From Escherichia phage UE-S1: a DNA stretch of 64,000 nucleotides. Position numbers and translations under genes: made by a program. This document shows positions 6,215-55,268 of the stretch, piece by piece. A model generated the notes under the pieces. It was not told the DNA's origin. It searched no databases and was given only the letters and a program-made list of their open reading frames with translations. Position 1 is the first letter of the stretch, and every line of letters starts with the position of its first letter. Where the stretch lies: sequence record ON568341.1. The stretch is one strand, 5' to 3'.

Positions 6215-6661
6215 ATGTCTAATGCACAACACAAAGAAGGTTATGACGCGTTTAAAAACAAAGTAGTTTTTAACAATGAACAGCTAAAATCACAGCACCC
6301 ACTATTCCGTCAAGGTTATCGTGCTGCACAAGCTGAAGCTATGAAGAAAAACAACGTAACATTCCCAACAACTCTGTATGATATTCCTAAACGTCCATCA
6401 GTGTTTAAAGCAGAATGGACTGACATTATGGCAGCAACTAAACGTCCTCGTTTTGCTAAACTTCACACTGATGAAGGTCGCTGGATGTTGATGGGTATTA
6501 TGAAAGCAGTCGAAAATCAATCACATAAGATTACTCGATATAAAGATGTTATTGCTATGGTTGATAAAGCATTTGATCTTGTTCTACAATATGGTTATGA
6601 CGAAGGTGTTCTAACTATTGCTGATTGTGAGCAATATCAGTACACCCCATATCAAAAATAA
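6215..6661 (+). CDS. hypothetical protein
   Basis: Track ORF 6122-6661 trimmed to internal ATG at 6215 (MSNAQHKEGY) to remove overlap with upstream ORF; terminator follows. Confidence 0.5.
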   Translation: MSNAQHKEGYDAFKNKVVFNNEQLKSQHPLFRQGYRAAQAEAMKKNNVTFPTTLYDIPKRPSVFKAEWTDIMAATKRPRFAKLHTDEGRWMLMGIMKAVENQSHKITRYKDVIAMVDKAFDLVLQYGYDEGVLTIADCEQYQYTPYQK

Positions 6662-6671
6662 TATAACAAAT

Positions 6672-6703
6672 AGGAATCCTAGTATGGGATTCCTATTTTT
6701 ATT
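6672..6703 (+). terminator. intrinsic terminator
   Basis: AGGAATCC / GGATTCCT stem then T-run. Confidence 0.7.
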
Positions 6704-6765
6704 ACTGCACGTCATCTTTTGATATAAATTTGAATACATTGTTGTTTATAATCTAGAGGGACATA

Positions 6766-7290
6766 ATGAAATACACACACCTAAGTATAGATGATACTAA
6801 TATCTGGTTAGATAACATAATCAAGACATTAGAATTAATTAAACTTACATTACAGAAATCAATTGATATTGAAACTAATATTAAACACGAAATATTAAAT
6901 TATTATCACAGAAACAAATATTGTACGTTTTTCTCTAAATTAATTTATGGATTATATGATAGTGAAGATATTTGTATCGGTTACAGTACTGGTATTTGCT
7001 TTACAATTAATGGTTTTATGAATGATTTAAATTTCCGTCTTTCAGAAGAACAGCAAAAGTTTCGTATATTTTGTGAGAATATTATCGATAAAGATGAAAT
7101 ATCATTTGTTATTGAATTAAATAGAACATGGTCTACATATGCAGATAAACCATTTGAAATTAATGAAACAGATGTGTTAAACTATATTCGAGTCATGAAA
7201 ATTCATGATTTGTGTAAAAATGCATTGTTAAGTATTGGAGCTTATAATGAAACATACGACTTGGTTGAAGATAGCAGAAGTAGTTGCTGA
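6766..7290 (+). CDS. hypothetical protein
   Basis: ORF in array; 3' end overlaps cd start. Confidence 0.45.
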   Translation: MKYTHLSIDDTNIWLDNIIKTLELIKLTLQKSIDIETNIKHEILNYYHRNKYCTFFSKLIYGLYDSEDICIGYSTGICFTINGFMNDLNFRLSEEQQKFRIFCENIIDKDEISFVIELNRTWSTYADKPFEINETDVLNYIRVMKIHDLCKNALLSIGAYNETYDLVEDSRSSC

Positions 7291-46399: not shown

Positions 46400-46412
46400 C
46401 AGAGGAATTGTA

Positions 46413-47425: not shown

Positions 47426-47548
47426 GTGATTACAGTATTAGAAGAGGATTGGGGTGTTTCAGAGCAAGGAACTGACGAATATGAATACCCAGAATATAAG
47501 ACTAAAGGCTTTTGGGAACGTTTTCGTGATTGGTTGATGGGGGAATAA
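47426..47548 (+). CDS. candidate small ORF (40 aa)
   Basis: Not on track; GTG start 5 nt after GGAGG; stop directly precedes CCA-enzyme ATG. Confidence 0.3.
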   Translation: MITVLEEDWGVSEQGTDEYEYPEYKTKGFWERFRDWLMGE

Positions 47549-48770: not shown

Positions 48771-49172
48771 GTGATGGTCAGATACTTATCGGACATACAA
48801 CACGGACAGAAACATTGGGATTTACCTAAAGGGAAAGCAGAGGGTGAAGAAACATTCAAAGAAGCTGCTGTGCGTGAATGTTTTGAAGAGACAGGATACG
48901 AAATCGATGAAGATGATCTTCTGTTTCTTGGTGATGTATCCTATAGAAAGGGAAAAAGGTTGGTTCTTTTCTTTTATACTGCTAAAGACAAGCCTGTACC
49001 AGATGAATTAGTATGTAAAAGTACATATACTAATAGATATGGTAAGAGTCATCCAGAATTGGATAAGTTCATGTACATTGATGTGCGAGAATGTCAAAAG
49101 TATTTGACTGAACGAATGTGTAACAGTATAATAAAAGCGGTTAAAGCTTTTCAAAGAAATAAAAGGAAATAA
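48771..49172 (+). CDS. Nudix hydrolase (N-terminal strand encoded in a different frame; possible frameshift)
   Basis: Canonical Nudix box GKAEGEETFKEAAVRECFEETGYEI; a 29-codon ORF at 48740-48829 in another frame encodes MRYSCGIIFYRDGQILIGHTTRT, the expected Nudix N-terminal strand. Confidence 0.55.
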   Translation: MMVRYLSDIQHGQKHWDLPKGKAEGEETFKEAAVRECFEETGYEIDEDDLLFLGDVSYRKGKRLVLFFYTAKDKPVPDELVCKSTYTNRYGKSHPELDKFMYIDVRECQKYLTERMCNSIIKAVKAFQRNKRK

Positions 49173-49173
49173 T

Positions 49174-49422
49174 ATGAAAGTTAAAATTTATGGTCGCACG
49201 ACTGGTTGTAAATTTTGCGATACTGCAAAAGCTGTATGTGAGCAAAATAAATTTGACATGGAATTTGTAGATATTGTTACTGAAGGTATTGATGGTGCAA
49301 AGCTATCAGAAATTTGTGGTGAGCCAGTACGTCAGGTTCCTCAAATTTTTGTAAATGACATTTATGTACCTGGGGGTTGTACTGGATTTATTGAAGGACT
49401 TAAAGAAGGTCGTTGGAAATAA
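49174..49422 (+). CDS. nrdC: glutaredoxin/thioredoxin (NrdC-like)
   Basis: KIYGRTTGCKFCDTAK CxxC active site; overall resemblance to T4 NrdC (KVYG..C.YCDNAK .. PQ.F). Confidence 0.65.
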   Translation: MKVKIYGRTTGCKFCDTAKAVCEQNKFDMEFVDIVTEGIDGAKLSEICGEPVRQVPQIFVNDIYVPGGCTGFIEGLKEGRWK

Positions 49423-49664
49423 TGGATATTGAAAAAGTATCATCTCGTGCAAAACAACTAGCTGACACGTTGGGAGTAGAGTTCAAAATTCCTGATATCA
49501 CCATCGCTAAAGAAAAAGCACAGAATAAAATTAATAAGATGAAAGAATATCTATCTAAACAGGAGCAATATGATTCTGCTGTAGAATTTATTATGAAATC
49601 ATTTAGTAAAGATGATATTTTGGCATTCATCAAATATGTGAAGGTTTCTGGTAACCCTAAATAA
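49422..49664 (+). CDS. hypothetical protein
   Basis: Start overlaps upstream stop (TAATG). Confidence 0.45.
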   Translation: MDIEKVSSRAKQLADTLGVEFKIPDITIAKEKAQNKINKMKEYLSKQEQYDSAVEFIMKSFSKDDILAFIKYVKVSGNPK

Positions 49665-49694
49665 CAATGAAGAACAAAAGTTCTTCTTAACAAT

Positions 49695-49949
49695 TTGGGA
49701 GATACTATTATGCTCAGTTTTCGTGAACAATTAGCAAAAGGTCAAATTAAGACTCAAGCTCAAACTAATATTCCTAAAAAATCTGCATTTTTGGGAACAA
49801 TTACGGAAGATGGATATTGTGACTATGATGCACCAGAAGATTCATGGTATATTACAAAAGACACAAAACGTAGTAATAGACTTCACAAAAGTACAATAGC
49901 TAGAAAGCATCGAAAAGAATTGAAAAAAATTCGTTTCGGTGAAGAATAA
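49695..49949 (+). CDS. small basic protein
   Basis: GGGAGA RBS; terminator follows. Confidence 0.45.
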   Translation: MGDTIMLSFREQLAKGQIKTQAQTNIPKKSAFLGTITEDGYCDYDAPEDSWYITKDTKRSNRLHKSTIARKHRKELKKIRFGEE

Positions 49950-49963
49950 TAAAATATAAATTA

Positions 49964-49993
49964 AGGACTCTGTGTTTGGAGTCCTTTCTTTTC
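49964..49993 (+). terminator. intrinsic terminator
   Basis: AGGACTC / GAGTCCT stem then T-rich run. Confidence 0.7.
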
Positions 49994-50003
49994 GGAGAAC
50001 ATA

Positions 50004-50480
50004 ATGATACATGAGCACCGAGGTAATCTGTTTGAATTGTTCAGTACTGTAACCGATGATGAAACTGCATTGCATATTATTGCACATGGTTGCAACGCCC
50101 AAGGTAAAATGGGTTCTGGTTTTGCAAAAGAACTAAGAAATCGTTACCCAATGGCATATGATGATTATAAAGCATATGAAAAGGAAATGGGATTTCTAAG
50201 AACTGGAAAAATTGCATATTCTTCGGTAAGTGATGATTTACTTATTGCAAACTGTATTACCCAACAATTCTACGGGAATGATGGTAAAAAATATGTAAGT
50301 TATGATGCAATTGATGATATTTTCAAAGAGATAAATTACTTATGTAATATTGAACGTAGTGTTTATGTACACTTTCCGAAAATTGGAGCCGATTTGGGTG
50401 GTGGTAACTGGAACGTTATCAAAGAAATTATTGATCACAGACTGGTCAATGCAGAAAAACACTTATATATTCTAAAATAA
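50004..50480 (+). CDS. macro-domain protein (ADP-ribose binding/processing)
   Basis: HGCNAQGKMGSGFAKEL and HFPKIGADLGGGNW resemble macro-domain Gly-rich loops. Confidence 0.6.
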   Translation: MIHEHRGNLFELFSTVTDDETALHIIAHGCNAQGKMGSGFAKELRNRYPMAYDDYKAYEKEMGFLRTGKIAYSSVSDDLLIANCITQQFYGNDGKKYVSYDAIDDIFKEINYLCNIERSVYVHFPKIGADLGGGNWNVIKEIIDHRLVNAEKHLYILK

Positions 50481-50491
50481 TCAAAAAGGAC

Positions 50492-50809
50492 TTGACAAAA
50501 ATGACTATGACCGTTAAACTACTAAACATCAATAACATTGGCCCAGTACTAGCTGTTCTTCAAACTGATTCTGCTGAAGCAGTGGTAGTTAACTACCCAG
50601 CACAATTAGGTACTGATGAAAATGGTGAAATCATTCTTCGTGATTATCTAGAGTTTGTTAGTATGGAGAAAAATGTTATTTTTTATAAATCCAACATTAT
50701 TAGTGTTAGTGATGCAAACCCTGCATTAGTTGATGCTTATGTTGATGCTATTAAAGCAATCGAAGACACTCCAAAAGTTTTTGTTCCTGAGAATAAAATT
50801 ATTCTATAA
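50492..50809 (+). CDS. hypothetical protein
   Basis: ORF in array. Confidence 0.5.
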   Translation: MTKMTMTVKLLNINNIGPVLAVLQTDSAEAVVVNYPAQLGTDENGEIILRDYLEFVSMEKNVIFYKSNIISVSDANPALVDAYVDAIKAIEDTPKVFVPENKIIL

Positions 50810-50823
50810 TAGAGGTATATAAA

Positions 50824-51201
50824 ATGGCTGTTAATGACGTTAAAGTAAAAACTATTCAAGCTATCGTAGTACTGAAAGATTCAACTCCATCTCCAAAAGA
50901 ATTGGTAATGGCTGGGATGACAATGCTTCATCAATACAATCCTGAATCACCAAATTATGTTCAAGAATACGAAGCAAAGCAGTTTAAAGAACATTGGCAG
51001 TCATGGATTAAAGATAATGAAATGGAGCAAGTTGTTTATGCTGCTGATGACATTTTCGAATTAGAACAAATTGAATATCTAGCAGGTCAACAATCTGTGC
51101 CGTTGAGTATCTTCGGTAATGGTGAAGAAGTCTTAGTTCTAGGACCATTCACTGCCGATGTAATTACACACTTACTAAGTAATTGTGAAAAAATTGGCTA
51201 A
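50824..51201 (+). CDS. hypothetical protein
   Basis: ORF in array. Confidence 0.5.
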   Translation: MAVNDVKVKTIQAIVVLKDSTPSPKELVMAGMTMLHQYNPESPNYVQEYEAKQFKEHWQSWIKDNEMEQVVYAADDIFELEQIEYLAGQQSVPLSIFGNGEEVLVLGPFTADVITHLLSNCEKIG

Positions 51202-51412
51202 ATGCTTAAAATTATCAGGATACCGAAACAATACATTGATGTTAAATAATATAAAGTATTGGGTTGATCCATACTTTAATAATTCATTGTTAATGTACAG
51301 AGATAAAAGTCGAGATTTATACGGAATATATGTTACACAGTTAATATATGCTATAGATTCAGAACATTTTACTCCGTTGGTATACCTGTACTGTTTGTAT
51401 AATTCAGAATAA
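51185..51412 (+). CDS. small hypothetical protein
   Basis: ORF overlapping upstream stop. Confidence 0.35.
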   Translation: MKKLAKCLKLSGYRNNTLMLNNIKYWVDPYFNNSLLMYRDKSRDLYGIYVTQLIYAIDSEHFTPLVYLYCLYNSE

Positions 51413-51417
51413 GTATT

Positions 51418-51465
51418 AGCACCTCTAAATAATGTATATATAAACATTAATGAGGTGCTTTTTTA
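51418..51465 (+). terminator. long-loop hairpin with T-run
   Basis: AGCACCTC / GAGGTGCT stem, 26-nt AT-rich loop, T6 running into the next ATG. Confidence 0.4.
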
Positions 51466-52256
51466 TGTCTTACAATTATATGGGTGGAAATCCAGATGCT
51501 CCTAACTTTGATCATCGTGAAAAACTGAAAGATGTTATCACTCAAATGTTGGGAGCAGGTGCAGTTGAGGTAGAAATTACTGATGGTCAATTAGAAATTG
51601 CAATTGATAATGCTGTATCAAATTACAGAGCGTGGAGTTCTGCTTCTAAAGAAGAAGCTTTTTTAAATATGAAATTTTATGATTCACAATCTGTATATAT
51701 GCTCCCAACTGAAGTTGAAATAGTTAAAAAGATTTACCGCTATGGTAATGGTTATTTAAGTTCTGGGTCAGGTAACAGCGTAGACCCATTCTCATTGGCA
51801 TTCACGAATACATATCTATTGACGTCGGCTAGGAATGCAGGTGGATATGATCTAACAACTTATGATTTCAGCTTTCAATTTCAAGAATTGGTTGGTCGTA
51901 TGTTTGGACGTGAAATTATATTCCAATTTAACCCAATGACTAAGAAACTTATTATTGATCGTGATATTCGCGGTACAGAAGAAGTATTACTACATGTGTA
52001 TCATAATATTCCAGAACCATTATTGTTCCAACGTCAGCAAAGCTACCCGTGGCTTCGTGATTGGGCATTGTCTGAAGCAATGATTATGCTTGGTCGTAAC
52101 CGTGCTAAGTTTGCTAGTTTGCCTGGACCACAAGGGACATTTTCAATGGATGGTGATACATTAAGAAATGAAGGTATCCAATTACAAGAACAACTAAAAG
52201 AACAGTTGAAGCGATATAAAGATGGTGGAGAACCACTTGGAATGATTATCGGGTAA
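51465..52256 (+). CDS. hypothetical protein (possible virion/tail-associated)
   Basis: Track ORF 51450-52256 trimmed to MSYNYMGG Met; sits upstream of the tail module. Confidence 0.45.
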   Translation: MSYNYMGGNPDAPNFDHREKLKDVITQMLGAGAVEVEITDGQLEIAIDNAVSNYRAWSSASKEEAFLNMKFYDSQSVYMLPTEVEIVKKIYRYGNGYLSSGSGNSVDPFSLAFTNTYLLTSARNAGGYDLTTYDFSFQFQELVGRMFGREIIFQFNPMTKKLIIDRDIRGTEEVLLHVYHNIPEPLLFQRQQSYPWLRDWALSEAMIMLGRNRAKFASLPGPQGTFSMDGDTLRNEGIQLQEQLKEQLKRYKDGGEPLGMIIG

Positions 52257-52284
52257 ATTTTAAACATTAAAAAAAGAGTACTAT

Positions 52285-54279
52285 ATGAATAATGAAGAAT
52301 TGAAAAAACTTTTGTTGTCAAAACATATTAATTCATGGGTACATTTATACAAAGGGGACTCTCATGTGAGAGATCTCCTTTCTGTTTTTGGAATAGAACC
52401 AAAAACTGATTTCGAAATATATAAAATTCTATATATGTTCATGAATGATATAACAACAGTTCCAACTGCATATTGTGGAAAAAAAGCAAGATACAAAAAT
52501 TTTCAAAAAGGATTTTATAAATTTTGTGATGATTATGTAATTAATAAGAAAAATACGTGTAATGTATGCCATGAGATGTATTATAAAAATCGAACTAATA
52601 AAACAAAATCAACATTAATGAATATGTATGGTGTATCTAATGTATCCCAGATCCAAGAAGTAAAACAAAAGAAAGAAAAAACTAACATTGAACGTTATGG
52701 TGTCTCTACTAATTTACAGACAACAGAATCTAAAGAGAAAATCAAACAAACTAATATAGAGCGATATGGATGTGAATATCCAAATCAAAACCCTGAAATA
52801 TTCAATAAAGTAAAAGAAACAAATTTAAAAAAGTATGGTGTTGAATTCCAAAGTAAAAGAAATGAAGTAAAAGAGAAAGCCAAAAATACAAATATATTAA
52901 GATACGGAACTGAGTATTCTTTATCATCACCGACTATTCGCGAAAAAATCAATAAAACAAATCTTGAACGATATGGTGGAAACCCACTATCAAATAAAAT
53001 TATCCAAGATAAAATAAAAAACACCAACACATTGAAGTATAATTCATTTTATCCAATGAGCAATATGAGTATTCAGGAAAAAGTTCATAATACCAATGTG
53101 GAACGATATGGTGTAAAATACCCAGCCCAAAATAATTCTATCATTGAAAAAATGAAAGAAACCACAAAAAATAGATATGGTTCAGAACACTACTCACAAA
53201 CAGATGAGTATAAAGATAAAATATCACTTGCCCGTCTAGACGAAAGATATAATATAATTGTTGCAAATATTGATAAAAACTATATTCCATTATTTGAAAA
53301 TACCGATCTGATTATGAAAGTTAATACAGACGAATACCCATTTTGGTGTGAGTATTGTGATGATTTGTTTTATAGTAAGTATAAAAATCATAAAGTGAAA
53401 TGTAAGTGTCAGAAAAATAATGGTCATTCCTTGAAAGAGAAAGATTTAGTTGATTATATAAAATCATTAATACCAAATACCGAAATCATAGAAAATGACC
53501 GTTCAGTACTGAAACCTAAAGAGTTGGATGTGTATATCCCTGACCGAAATCTAGCTATTGAATTTAATGGTGTGTATTGGCATAATGATGAAAATGTCAA
53601 TTCTACTAAACACCAAGATAAGGTATTGGATTGTTTAAAACATGGGGTGAATCTTATTCACATTTATGAAGATGAATGGGATAACCCATTAACAAATAAA
53701 ATAATCAAGGAACGTTTAAAGAATAAACTTCTAGTGTCAAATAGAATTTATGCTAGAAAATGTACTGTTAGAAATATAGACAAACAAGTAAGTAATATGT
53801 TTACTAAATCACACCATATTCAAGGTGTTGCACAAGCAAGTATTCACATTGGACTTTACTATGGAAGTGAGTTGGTTGCAGTTATGACCTTTGGTAAATC
53901 AAGGTTTGATAAAAACTATGAATATGAATTAATCAGATACTGTTCATCCGGTACAGTTGTTGGTGGTGCATCAAAATTACTAAAATATTTTGAAACAGTA
54001 TATAATCCACAATCATTATTGACATATGCGGATATGGATTGGAGTAGTGGTGATCTTTATACAGTTCTAGGCTTTGAGTTTGATAGTTATACAGAACCAG
54101 GATATTTTTATTATGACCCACAAACACATGAGAGGATTTCACGTCAGAAATGTCAAAAACATAAATTGGTCAAGAAAGGTTATGATATTAACTTAACCGA
54201 GAGACAAATTTGCTGTGATGTGTTGGGATATTATAAGATTTACAACTCTGGTAATATAAAATACACAAAAAAATATTAA
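52285..54279 (+). CDS. free-standing homing-endonuclease-like protein with tandem peptide repeats and a Vsr/PD-(D/E)xK-like nuclease core
   Basis: Eight or nine tandem ~23-29-aa repeats with core TN(I/L/V)ERYG; nuclease-like block ELDVYIPDRNLAIEFNGVYWH; extra C-terminal domain (GGASKLL). Confidence 0.6.
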   Translation: MNNEELKKLLLSKHINSWVHLYKGDSHVRDLLSVFGIEPKTDFEIYKILYMFMNDITTVPTAYCGKKARYKNFQKGFYKFCDDYVINKKNTCNVCHEMYYKNRTNKTKSTLMNMYGVSNVSQIQEVKQKKEKTNIERYGVSTNLQTTESKEKIKQTNIERYGCEYPNQNPEIFNKVKETNLKKYGVEFQSKRNEVKEKAKNTNILRYGTEYSLSSPTIREKINKTNLERYGGNPLSNKIIQDKIKNTNTLKYNSFYPMSNMSIQEKVHNTNVERYGVKYPAQNNSIIEKMKETTKNRYGSEHYSQTDEYKDKISLARLDERYNIIVANIDKNYIPLFENTDLIMKVNTDEYPFWCEYCDDLFYSKYKNHKVKCKCQKNNGHSLKEKDLVDYIKSLIPNTEIIENDRSVLKPKELDVYIPDRNLAIEFNGVYWHNDENVNSTKHQDKVLDCLKHGVNLIHIYEDEWDNPLTNKIIKERLKNKLLVSNRIYARKCTVRNIDKQVSNMFTKSHHIQGVAQASIHIGLYYGSELVAVMTFGKSRFDKNYEYELIRYCSSGTVVGGASKLLKYFETVYNPQSLLTYADMDWSSGDLYTVLGFEFDSYTEPGYFYYDPQTHERISRQKCQKHKLVKKGYDINLTERQICCDVLGYYKIYNSGNIKYTKKY

Positions 54280-54286
54280 TAAAAAA

Positions 54287-54310
54287 GACTCCTATGTGGG
54301 GTCTTTTTTC
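54287..54310 (+). terminator. intrinsic terminator
   Basis: GACTCC / GGGGTC stem (one G-U) then T6; loop and 3' arm nearly identical to terminator at 42495. Confidence 0.6.
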
Positions 54311-54354
54311 TTTATCTGTGATATAATGATAATATTAATAGAAGAGAATATAAC

Positions 54355-54624
54355 ATGAATGATAATATAAATGTAATGTATAACAGATATCGTTGCGGGA
54401 AACCAACGCTTGATTATGAATCTACGGAAAAGTATTGGAAATTTATAAAAGATTCAATTGTTGATGTATTCGGTCGAGATCGTATAAATGCGTGGGCCAG
54501 TATATATCGTGATGAGCATGGAGAAACATTTTTCATTACTTATGTTTCTGTTTATAATAGTAACGAATCAATAGTTAAATTGCTTCAATGTTTGGTGGGG
54601 AAGGATTTTGTTGTATTGGAATAA
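54355..54624 (+). CDS. hypothetical protein
   Basis: ORF in array. Confidence 0.45.
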   Translation: MNDNINVMYNRYRCGKPTLDYESTEKYWKFIKDSIVDVFGRDRINAWASIYRDEHGETFFITYVSVYNSNESIVKLLQCLVGKDFVVLE

Positions 54625-54641
54625 TTTCATGGAGAAATATT

Positions 54642-55268
54642 ATGGAAAGACAAATAATCGCAATTAATGGAACAATAGGAAGTGGAAAAGATACTTTTGC
54701 AAAAACATTTATTGAAAATGGATATACAAAAATGTCATTTGCTACCAATTTAAAAGACTCAGTATCTTCTATTTTTGGGTGGGATCGTGAAATGCTTGAA
54801 GGAACGACTAAGGAAAGCCGCATGATTCGTGAAAAACCGGATAAGTACTGGTGTGAAAAATTGGGGCGTGATGATGTATCCCCTCGATGGGTATTACAAA
54901 ATTATGGTACTAATATACTACGTAAGTATTTTCATAATGATATTTGGGTATTCAGTTTAGAAAAATCTATGCAAGAAGTAAATGGAAATATCATCATCAC
55001 TGATTGTCGTTTTCCTAATGAATTAAAAATGATTAGATCTCAACATGGTACGATTATTGAAGTGCAACGTGTACTTCCACATTGGTATGGATTGGCTGCA
55101 TCTTATAATAAAGGAAATATTAAAATTAAACCAGTAGAACTTGAATCAGTACATGAATCAGAGTGGGCTTGGATTGGAATAAACAAACCTGATATAATTA
55201 TTCATAATAGCAGCACATTAGATGACTTACATCAAAAAGCAATGGCGATTATTTATTCTAATATGTAA
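54642..55268 (+). CDS. P-loop kinase, dNMP-kinase-like (T4 gp1-like)
   Basis: INGTIGSGKDTFAKTF P-loop resembles T4 dNMP kinase (LSGVKRSGKDTTADFI); start at ATG after GGAG. Confidence 0.55.
   Translation: MERQIIAINGTIGSGKDTFAKTFIENGYTKMSFATNLKDSVSSIFGWDREMLEGTTKESRMIREKPDKYWCEKLGRDDVSPRWVLQNYGTNILRKYFHNDIWVFSLEKSMQEVNGNIIITDCRFPNELKMIRSQHGTIIEVQRVLPHWYGLAASYNKGNIKIKPVELESVHESEWAWIGINKPDIIIHNSSTLDDLHQKAMAIIYSNM

Follow-up and report, generated by a model that had tools for sequence, protein, structure and literature searches.

A putative Hef-like homing endonuclease gene with a DUF7487 repeat array and a Mom-like domain at the neck locus of Escherichia phage UE-S1

How did a gene for a protein that joins a peptide repeat array, a nuclease and a relative of a DNA-modifying enzyme come to lie behind a phage neck gene, and what does it do there? 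The question is raised by a 664-residue open reading frame (ORF) in Escherichia phage UE-S1, examined here within a window of 64,000 nucleotides from sequence record ON568341.1. The product is an exact match to UTS53863.1 of UE-S1, which the record labels 'hypothetical protein UES1_496'. An initial annotation of this DNA had delimited the ORF at 52285-54279, in agreement with the ORF listing (+ strand, 664 aa), and had taken it for a free-standing, mobile homing-endonuclease insertion. The family profiles, a precise empty site in related genomes and a stretch of flanking identity shared by the carriers uphold that view, and it is likely, as far as sequence comparison can tell, that this is a free-standing and functional homing endonuclease gene (HEG) from the Hef-like clade of the Vsr-like ('EDxHD') family. 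In favour stand the anatomy of its domains, its place in the family, catalytic residues that are intact, purifying selection on the sequence, a precise presence/absence polymorphism and the flanking-identity island.

Family and modules of the protein

The protein matches PHROG 3339, 'homing endonuclease' (E 6e-166; the assignment that identifies it beside the I-Bth0305I profile), as well as PHROG 559 (E 8e-80), and belongs to a family of >3,300 homologues. In tblastn searches it shows 30–44% identity to genes annotated as Hef-like or homing endonuclease (CPX, JC221, F-LimIII), including 37–44% over residues ~377–663 to the 'putative Hef-like homing endonuclease' of CPX, JC221 and SG1. NCBIfam returned no match to the whole protein or to its single domains. 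Two AlphaFold2 (AF2) models built from homologue alignments cover the chain, with mean predicted local distance difference test (pLDDT) values of 92.1 for residues 1–352 and 93.1 for residues 340–664. The modules described below are listed with their coordinates in Table 1.

Sequence searches of the PDB matched the nuclease domain to one entry only, 3R3P, which holds the I-Bth0305I catalytic domain; E was 0.018 when the protein was searched by itself and 2.4e-6 when a 60-homologue profile was used. The Vsr-like 'EDxHD' family of homing endonucleases has I-Bth0305I as its prototype, and Taylor et al. (2011) also place 'bacteriophage Hef type homing endonucleases' in it (PMC3239194). The block ELDVYIPDRNLAIEFNGVYWH (residues 413–433), in which a Vsr or PD-(D/E)xK-like nuclease had initially been suspected, aligns with the I-Bth0305I catalytic domain, so that the suspicion is borne out by the profile match and by the residues retained. 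Key positions are S382, E385, E413, D415, E426, N428, H433, H443 and K446. The I-Bth0305I residues E170, D196, E206, N208, H213 and K225 correspond to E385 (E in 54/60 homologues), D415 (60/60), E426, N428 (46 N and 13 D of 60), H433 (60/60) and K446, respectively, and D222, the equivalent of D97 in Vsr, corresponds to His443 (H in 58/60). E413, D415, E426, H433 and K446 are invariant in the 60 homologues, and E385 and H443 nearly so. The active site looks intact, since all family-invariant nuclease residues are present; the loss of catalytic residues that the initial annotation had held capable of undoing its proposal is thus not observed. AF2 predicts an alpha-beta-beta-beta-alpha-beta core (pLDDT >90), and homologues carry PF18741. 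The zinc ribbon that precedes the domain (residues 350–375) follows a family consensus KCxxCG...CxxCxP, is modelled with a beta-hairpin at residues 350–365 and gives a weak match to PF24749.

The N-terminal half consists of a helical region, a beta-hairpin and a repeat array. The hairpin bears Cys64/81/92/95, of which C64, C81 and C92 are invariant or nearly so in the family, and is modelled as a zinc-ribbon-like element. The array had been described at first as eight or nine repeats of ~25 aa spanning residues ~105–310; the tandem arrangement stands, the count is nine and the period is 23 aa. All units are in register and 23 aa long except one of 22, their T-N-x-x-R/K-Y-G cores begin at residues 110, 133, 156, 179, 202, 225, 247, 270 and 293, and their consensus is IkEKiKnTNieRYGveypsQnxE. 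Mean pairwise identity between units is 35%, against 7.6 +/- 0.9% (maximum 11.5%) in 2000 composition-preserving shuffles. Pfam assigns the repeats to DUF7487 (PF24308; E 3.4e-38, 132 bits against a gathering score of 27), and so the profile searches envisaged in the initial annotation place repeat and nuclease in DUF7487 and in the I-Bth0305I family, respectively. In the AF2 model a 15-residue helix and a short helix make up each unit, in that order. The repeats are ancient and visible in the protein alone, because Tandem Repeats Finder detects no DNA-level tandem repeats in the gene.

DUF7487 arrays occur in phages and giant viruses, always joined to nuclease modules of at least two types, and a crude count gives 2–18 copies among 120 homologues. 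Lactococcus phage LW81 encodes a 313-aa 'homing endonuclease' with a zinc ribbon, DUF7487 repeats and a different small nuclease module, lacking the Mom-like domain; short Hef-like proteins show the converse, a nuclease and Mom-like domain lacking repeats. The array thus emerges as a nuclease-associated, copy-number-variable, basic module. The repeats carry a net charge of +15, the GNAT domain one of +10 and the nuclease one of -7. Given the charge of the repeats, their 2–18 copies and their constant linkage to nucleases, it is plausible that they act as modular DNA-binding units. The searches made for this unit returned no solved structural relative, and DUF7487 was not mentioned in the literature searched.

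The C-terminal domain (~190 aa) had been noted as a stretch of ~200 aa with a GGASKLL motif and left without a name. It is present, with GGASKLL at residues 560–566, and can now be assigned a Mom-like GNAT fold, modelled with a helical insertion at its C-terminal side. When the AF2 model was compared with the PDB in Foldseek, Mom of phage Mu (8BV8) ranked first (E 1.3e-7), generic GNAT acetyltransferases following at E 7e-5 or worse, and hhalign against the Mom family alignment gave a probability of 94% (E 1.4e-7). A Mom-family hidden Markov model (HMM) matches many of the homologues directly, and several carry a precomputed match to Pfam Mom (PF25680). The UE-S1 domain falls below the gathering score of that model (18.0 bits against 27.1; E 0.0024, profile positions 3–50 only), and direct sequence or profile searches of the PDB did not find 8BV8, which emerged from structure search and profile-profile comparison.

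Residues conserved in this domain are R491, H511, Q513, G514, R540, R551, GGASK 560–564, D583, Y592, F597, Y607, R620 and K625. Among the functionally important residues of Mom (PMC13219725), of which R111, D149, S124 and R151 are essential, H58, R111 and Y159 align with H511, R551 and Y592, each present in 60/60 homologues, and D149 aligns with D583 (43 D and 8 N of 60). Mom R151, the R151A substitution of which is inactive (PMC13219725), aligns with D585, next to M584; an arginine occupies position 585 in 19/60 homologues and position 584 in 31/60, and members of the neck-site lineage read M-D/N there. In a low-confidence stretch, the hhalign and hmmsearch registers both pair Mom S124 with V559 (V/I in the family), and a shift of four residues would bring S124 to S563 (S in 53/60). 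Conservation does not extend to Mom W48, Y59 and W181. Judging from alignment and model, the domain clearly derives from Mom and is under strong constraint. The missing R151 equivalent weakens the case for an active Mom enzyme in the neck-site lineage, and the conserved pocket residues leave room for a catalytic or base-flipping role.

Selection on the gene was estimated among its three Asteriusvirus carriers. The ratio of nonsynonymous to synonymous substitution rates (dN/dS) is ~0.10 overall, 0.07–0.14 per domain and ~0.08 for the Mom-like domain. The corresponding values for the neck gene of TH47 are invalid because of a 1-nt indel (TH47 locus ~6451–7258) in MT446416.1, an UNVERIFIED and unannotated record; the indel, which breaks the frame relative to the window, is probably a sequencing error.

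Insertion site, flanks and expression

The nearest relatives of the window are Escherichia phages TH47 (94% nucleotide identity) and ph0011 (92%), followed at ~87% by 121Q, PBECO4, G17 and others, all of the genus Asteriusvirus, jumbo phages of ~350 kb (121Q/PBECO4-like). The initial annotation had spoken of a T4-like genome; the window belongs instead to a RaK2/121Q-like jumbo phage in which the neck and sheath genes are T4-like. The comparison set comprised 42 phage records matching the 5-kb neighbourhood of the endonuclease gene. The gene is covered in TH47 and ph0011 only, and ~26 records match both flanks and not the gene, so the carriers are 3 of ~30 Asteriusvirus genomes (UE-S1, TH47 and ph0011).

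Alignment with 121Q leaves one exact gap of 2022 columns (window 52260–54281), and a clean gap is likewise seen in PBECO4, fEgEco12, CMSTMSU and others, the flanks abutting at the junction of TAAATT with AAAAAAGACTCC. In non-carriers the neck-gene stop (TAAATT) leads straight into a hairpin AAAAAAGACTCC...GGAGTCTTTTTT, with a conserved TGTGATATAATG box behind it; carriers have a 25-nt leader and the ORF between stop and hairpin. The synteny comparison foreseen in the initial annotation thus finds the gene absent between its flanks in most relatives, and its presence in all of them, which had been held to speak against mobility, is not what Asteriusvirus displays.

The flanks carry a record of their own. 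Identity between the window and TH47 is 95–99% from ~50.9 to ~55.1 kb, against 80–87% elsewhere; with ph0011 the stretch of high identity (generally 91–99%) begins at ~50.4 kb and stops where the gene ends on its 3' side (~54150), beyond which identity is 82%. Several stretches of the window upstream of this island (e.g., 48.2–49.9 kb) resemble the gene-less 121Q (92–96%) more than TH47, but towards the 3' end of the neck gene identity to 121Q is only 80–85%. Over the final ~410 bp of that gene 27 fixed differences separate carriers from non-carriers, with a peak of 8 per 50 bp at 52150–52199. The carriers' shared flank allele conflicts with the relatedness of the genome backbones, which argues for lateral movement of the block. 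The island and the fixed differences look like co-conversion of flanking markers by homing; the neck gene would then be a candidate target gene, with the cluster at its 3' end as candidate target or immunity region.

Orthologues (44–55% identity) lie directly after the gp13-like gene in phiKp_21, in eight Alcyoneusvirus genomes (including RaK2, K64-1 and Muenster) and in two metagenomic jumbo-phage contigs; those of RaK2 and K64-1 are labelled 'homing endonuclease' in RefSeq. For its scattered occurrence within Asteriusvirus the best explanation is gain by homing combined with persistence, with some losses possible. Paralogues occur at multiple sites in other phages (10–12 places in Campylobacter phages, 6 in LIMEstone1, 5 in Paride), and tblastn found none in the 64-kb window. 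The genomes of ph0011, RaK2, K64-1 and Muenster each have three places with DNA similarity to the gene, which indicates additional paralogues elsewhere in them.

The gene was initially thought to be flanked by terminators. The downstream one is real and ancestral, as the same hairpin directly follows the neck-gene stop in gene-less genomes; on the upstream side the 28 nt from the neck-gene stop to the endonuclease ATG hold no hairpin. A 'terminator-like' match at 52359–52372 lies inside the ORF and was set aside as chance. The gene is presumably transcribed by read-through from the neck gene, its probable transcription source, since it sits 3' of that gene and 5' of its terminator. The leader carries an AAGAG Shine-Dalgarno-like box, and no hairpin sequestering the ribosome binding site, as in some T4 endonuclease genes, was found there (minimum free energy -6.7 kcal/mol, z = +1.7).

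From these comparisons we infer every step of the following course. Read-through of the late neck transcript would express the endonuclease, which, upon co-infection with a gene-less relative, would bind a long site near the neck/g549 junction with its two basic parts, the DUF7487 array and the Mom-like domain, and with its zinc ribbons. Cutting would fall to the Vsr-like active site (E385, D415, E426/N428, H433, H443/K446), and repair by recombination, with the HEG-carrying genome as template, would give the recipient a copy of the gene and, along with it, as much as ~1.4 kb of the upstream and ~0.9 kb of the downstream flank.

Table 1. Features at the neck locus of phage UE-S1 (window positions; residues in brackets).
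Feature	Positions	Strand	Basis or remark
Identity island with TH47	50900..55140		Sliding-window identity
gp13-like neck (head-tail adaptor) gene	51450..52256	+	Upstream flank
Inserted segment, putatively mobile, ~2.02 kb: 25-nt leader and endonuclease ORF	52260..54279	+	One clean gap in non-carriers
Putative homing endonuclease ORF, 664 aa	52285..54279	+	ORF listing, PHROG 3339
Four-helix region (1–55) and beta-hairpin (60–95)	52285..52569	+	AF2 model, pLDDT >90
Nine tandem 23-aa DUF7487 repeats (103–308)	52591..53208	+	Pfam, in-register cores, AF2 model
Zinc ribbon CxxC...CxC before nuclease (Cys355/358/371/373)	53332..53409	+	Family consensus, AF2 model
Vsr-like (EDxHD-type) nuclease domain (380–470)	53422..53694	+	I-Bth0305I profile match, conserved residues, AF2 core
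Mom-like GNAT-fold domain (475–664)	53707..54276	+	Foldseek, hhalign, Mom HMM
Intrinsic terminator hairpin	54281..54309	+	Ancestral neck-gene terminator, now also ends the endonuclease transcript

Homing weighed against other explanations

Several observations weigh against a homing endonuclease. The last residue of the EDxHD signature (D222) is His443 in this clade, that is 'EDxHH', and textbook homing endonucleases offer no precedent for the strongly conserved Mom-like domain, which Iyer et al. (2021) interpret differently (PMC7824862). An orthologue is present in all eight sequenced Alcyoneusvirus genomes, and the divergence of the endonuclease (94 > 55 > 52 > 44%) tracks that of the neck protein (99.6 > 79 > 72 > 55%), a parallel which implies that the lineage is old at the neck site; long vertical persistence with losses would account for part of the distribution. 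Recombination unrelated to the nuclease could also yield an identity island, and the three carrier alleles are 4–7% apart in nucleotides, so that the transfers are not recent. Lastly, the homing function is read from comparison, and the cleavage site is a candidate.

The most elaborate alternative comes from Iyer, Anantharaman, Krishnan, Burroughs and Aravind (2021), who predict self-protecting modification plus restriction for the fusions of Mom with restriction endonuclease (REase) domains of jumbo phages (PMC7824862). Applied to UE-S1, a single polypeptide would modify the phage's own adenines through the Mom-like GNAT domain and attack unmodified host or rival DNA through the nuclease, in a conflict between genomes. 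Mom being the closest solved structure to the C-terminal domain, the retention of H58, R111, D149 and Y159 equivalents, the canonical GNAT motif-A-like VVGGASK and the purifying selection on the domain (dN/dS ~0.08) all suit this explanation. It is nonetheless quite improbable for this gene: the essential R151 is replaced by aspartate beside M584, the whole neck-site lineage having M-D/N, S124 meets a valine in both registers of its low-confidence stretch, and the Pfam Mom score is sub-threshold (18 bits against 27.1). Moreover, the gene is missing from most sister phages, and the empty site, co-converted flanks, conserved insertion site and multiple paralogues are hallmarks of an HEG and not of a restriction-modification system. 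Site-specific homing has been reported for Hef-type members of the family (PMC3239194, PMC2988022), and Hef of phage U5 reportedly cleaves near nrdB (PMC2988022). The comparative evidence favours homing over modification-restriction for the UE-S1 gene.

The apparent fixation in Alcyoneusvirus, the divergence parallel to that of the flanking genes and the dN/dS of ~0.10 would also be expected of a domesticated, vertically inherited nuclease with a housekeeping role (host-DNA degradation or superinfection exclusion), ancestral at this locus among RaK2-like jumbo phages, most Asteriusvirus lineages having lost it. This history is very unlikely. The eight Alcyoneusvirus genomes, with 97–100% identity at the locus, count for about one sample, a scar-free junction in every non-carrier would seldom result from independent losses, and the conflict between flank allele and backbone points to lateral movement of the block. 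A decaying, catalytically dead HEG remnant that persists by hitch-hiking alone is barely credible: HEGs are expected to degenerate after fixation in the established homing-cycle model, and the record names the product only a 'hypothetical protein', but the ORF is intact in all three carriers, 12/14 cluster members are full-length (664 aa), all family-invariant nuclease residues are present, and the dN/dS of ~0.1 in all domains (0.07–0.14 each) speaks against decay.

Within the homing endonuclease reading, a further proposal concerns the accessory modules and must be regarded as unlikely: the Mom-like GNAT domain may be active on DNA (adenine acylation or aminoacylation), or may be a base-flipping reader derived from such enzymes, and thereby mark or read the element's own target; the DUF7487 array may, separately, be a new modular, copy-number-variable DNA-recognition repeat. 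If the domain does mark or read its own target, Hef-like elements would be one-polypeptide homing systems of the type 'modify or recognise self, cut rival', and if the repeats specify DNA sequence they could be of interest to engineers of DNA-targeting proteins.

As a selfish element the UE-S1 gene is ordinary, the RaK2 and K64-1 orthologues having been labelled already and the Mom-REase architecture being in the literature. Its value is that of a clean natural example, in which the empty site is exact, the co-conversion tract can be seen and orthologues share one site across genera. It could settle the dispute whether the family consists of homing endonucleases (Taylor et al., 2011, and, reportedly, Sandegren and colleagues in 2005) or of fused modification-restriction modules (Iyer et al., 2021). 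Two conserved modules merit interest in their own right, namely a Mom-derived GNAT domain on a nuclease and the 23-aa DUF7487 repeat.

Neighbouring genes and known systems

The initial annotation had placed the gene between a probable structural gene and the dNMP (deoxynucleoside monophosphate) kinase and sheath genes. The upstream neighbour is indeed structural, the neck gene, but a small conserved ORF (54355..54624, PHROG 34967) intervenes before the kinase, and the downstream order is g549-like, dNMP kinase and tail sheath genes. The mechanical ORF of the kinase starts at 54588 (54588..55268) and overlaps the g549-like ORF; its true start is probably the ATG at 54642 (54642..55268), because the annotated genes of 121Q and ph0011 are 627 bp long. 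Just past the terminator, at 54317–54327, lies a TGTGATATAAT box (an extended -10-like element) that is kept in all compared Asteriusvirus genomes, carriers or not, and may be the promoter of the g549-like and dNMP kinase genes. Upstream of the neck gene (48771–51201) a run of small accessory genes encodes a NUDIX hydrolase, a glutaredoxin, a macro-domain protein and a PTH2-like aminoacyl-tRNA hydrolase; the run is kept in related jumbo phages, which have a tRNA nucleotidyltransferase further upstream.

Other differences among these genomes lie nearby. Between approximately 46480 and 47220 the window is 68–76% identical to TH47 and ph0011 and 92–96% to 121Q, the opposite of the pattern at the endonuclease gene, a mosaic that indicates frequent block exchange among these phages. 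TH47 has a 1072-bp insertion at window position 47548, an empty site in the window, ph0011 and 121Q. The product of this insertion, 355 aa long, contains treble-clef/zinc-ribbon motifs (PF14311, E 1.7e-7) and a C-terminal block 'DFYLVDYDICIEYDGKQHF' that looks PD-(D/E)xK-like; this is probably a second, unrelated free-standing nuclease gene. A 502-bp insertion of ph0011 at window position 46408 (longest ORF 83 aa) is absent from the window, TH47 and 121Q.

Among known systems, Hef of phage U5 was reportedly treated as a homing endonuclease by Sandegren et al. in 2005. The UE-S1 gene resembles Hef-type enzymes (U5 Hef; F-LimIII/VII/VIII/X of Dickeya phage LIMEstone1) in its PHROG families and in being free-standing, intergenic, located beside a conserved structural gene and sporadic in occurrence. 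The likeness resides in the C-terminal ~280 aa (30–44% identity, measured against genes annotated as Hef-like and not against U5 Hef), and to the ~270–290 aa matched in short Hef-like proteins UE-S1 adds ~375 N-terminal residues with the helical domain, the zinc-ribbon-like hairpin, nine DUF7487 repeats and the second zinc ribbon. The array recalls, by analogy only, the NUMOD elements that Sitbon and Pietrokovski are said to have described in 2003 as nuclease-associated modular DNA-binding motifs, in that short repeated modules lie N-terminal to differing nuclease domains of mobile endonucleases. DUF7487 is, however, a distinct 23-aa helix-loop-short-helix unit in arrays of 2–18, and no Pfam NUMOD model matches the UE-S1 protein.

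I-Bth0305I has a homologous nuclease core, with equivalents of E170, D196, E206, N208 and H213 in UE-S1, but is intron-encoded, 266 aa long, equipped with NUMOD-type N-terminal motifs and devoid of a C-terminal domain, whereas the UE-S1 protein has His443 for D222, an extra invariant E413 before D415 and the Mom-like GNAT domain after the nuclease. Mu Mom (8BV8; PF25680), a tRNA-dependent DNA adenine-modifying GNAT enzyme, is the closest solved fold to residues 475–664 and shares with them the H58, R111, D149 and Y159 equivalents, an extra helical insertion past the GNAT core and a K-H-K/H-K-F stretch; the UE-S1 domain differs in its identity of only ~16–22%, its sub-threshold Pfam score, the absent R151 equivalent and its fusion to a nuclease. 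The jumbo-phage Mom-REase fusions (PMC7824862) have the same architecture, a Mom-family GNAT domain with an REase-fold domain, and the PA5oct copies are among the matches to the UE-S1 protein; in contrast to the interpretation given to those fusions, the empty site, the co-conversion island and the conserved insertion site of the UE-S1 gene point to a homing element.

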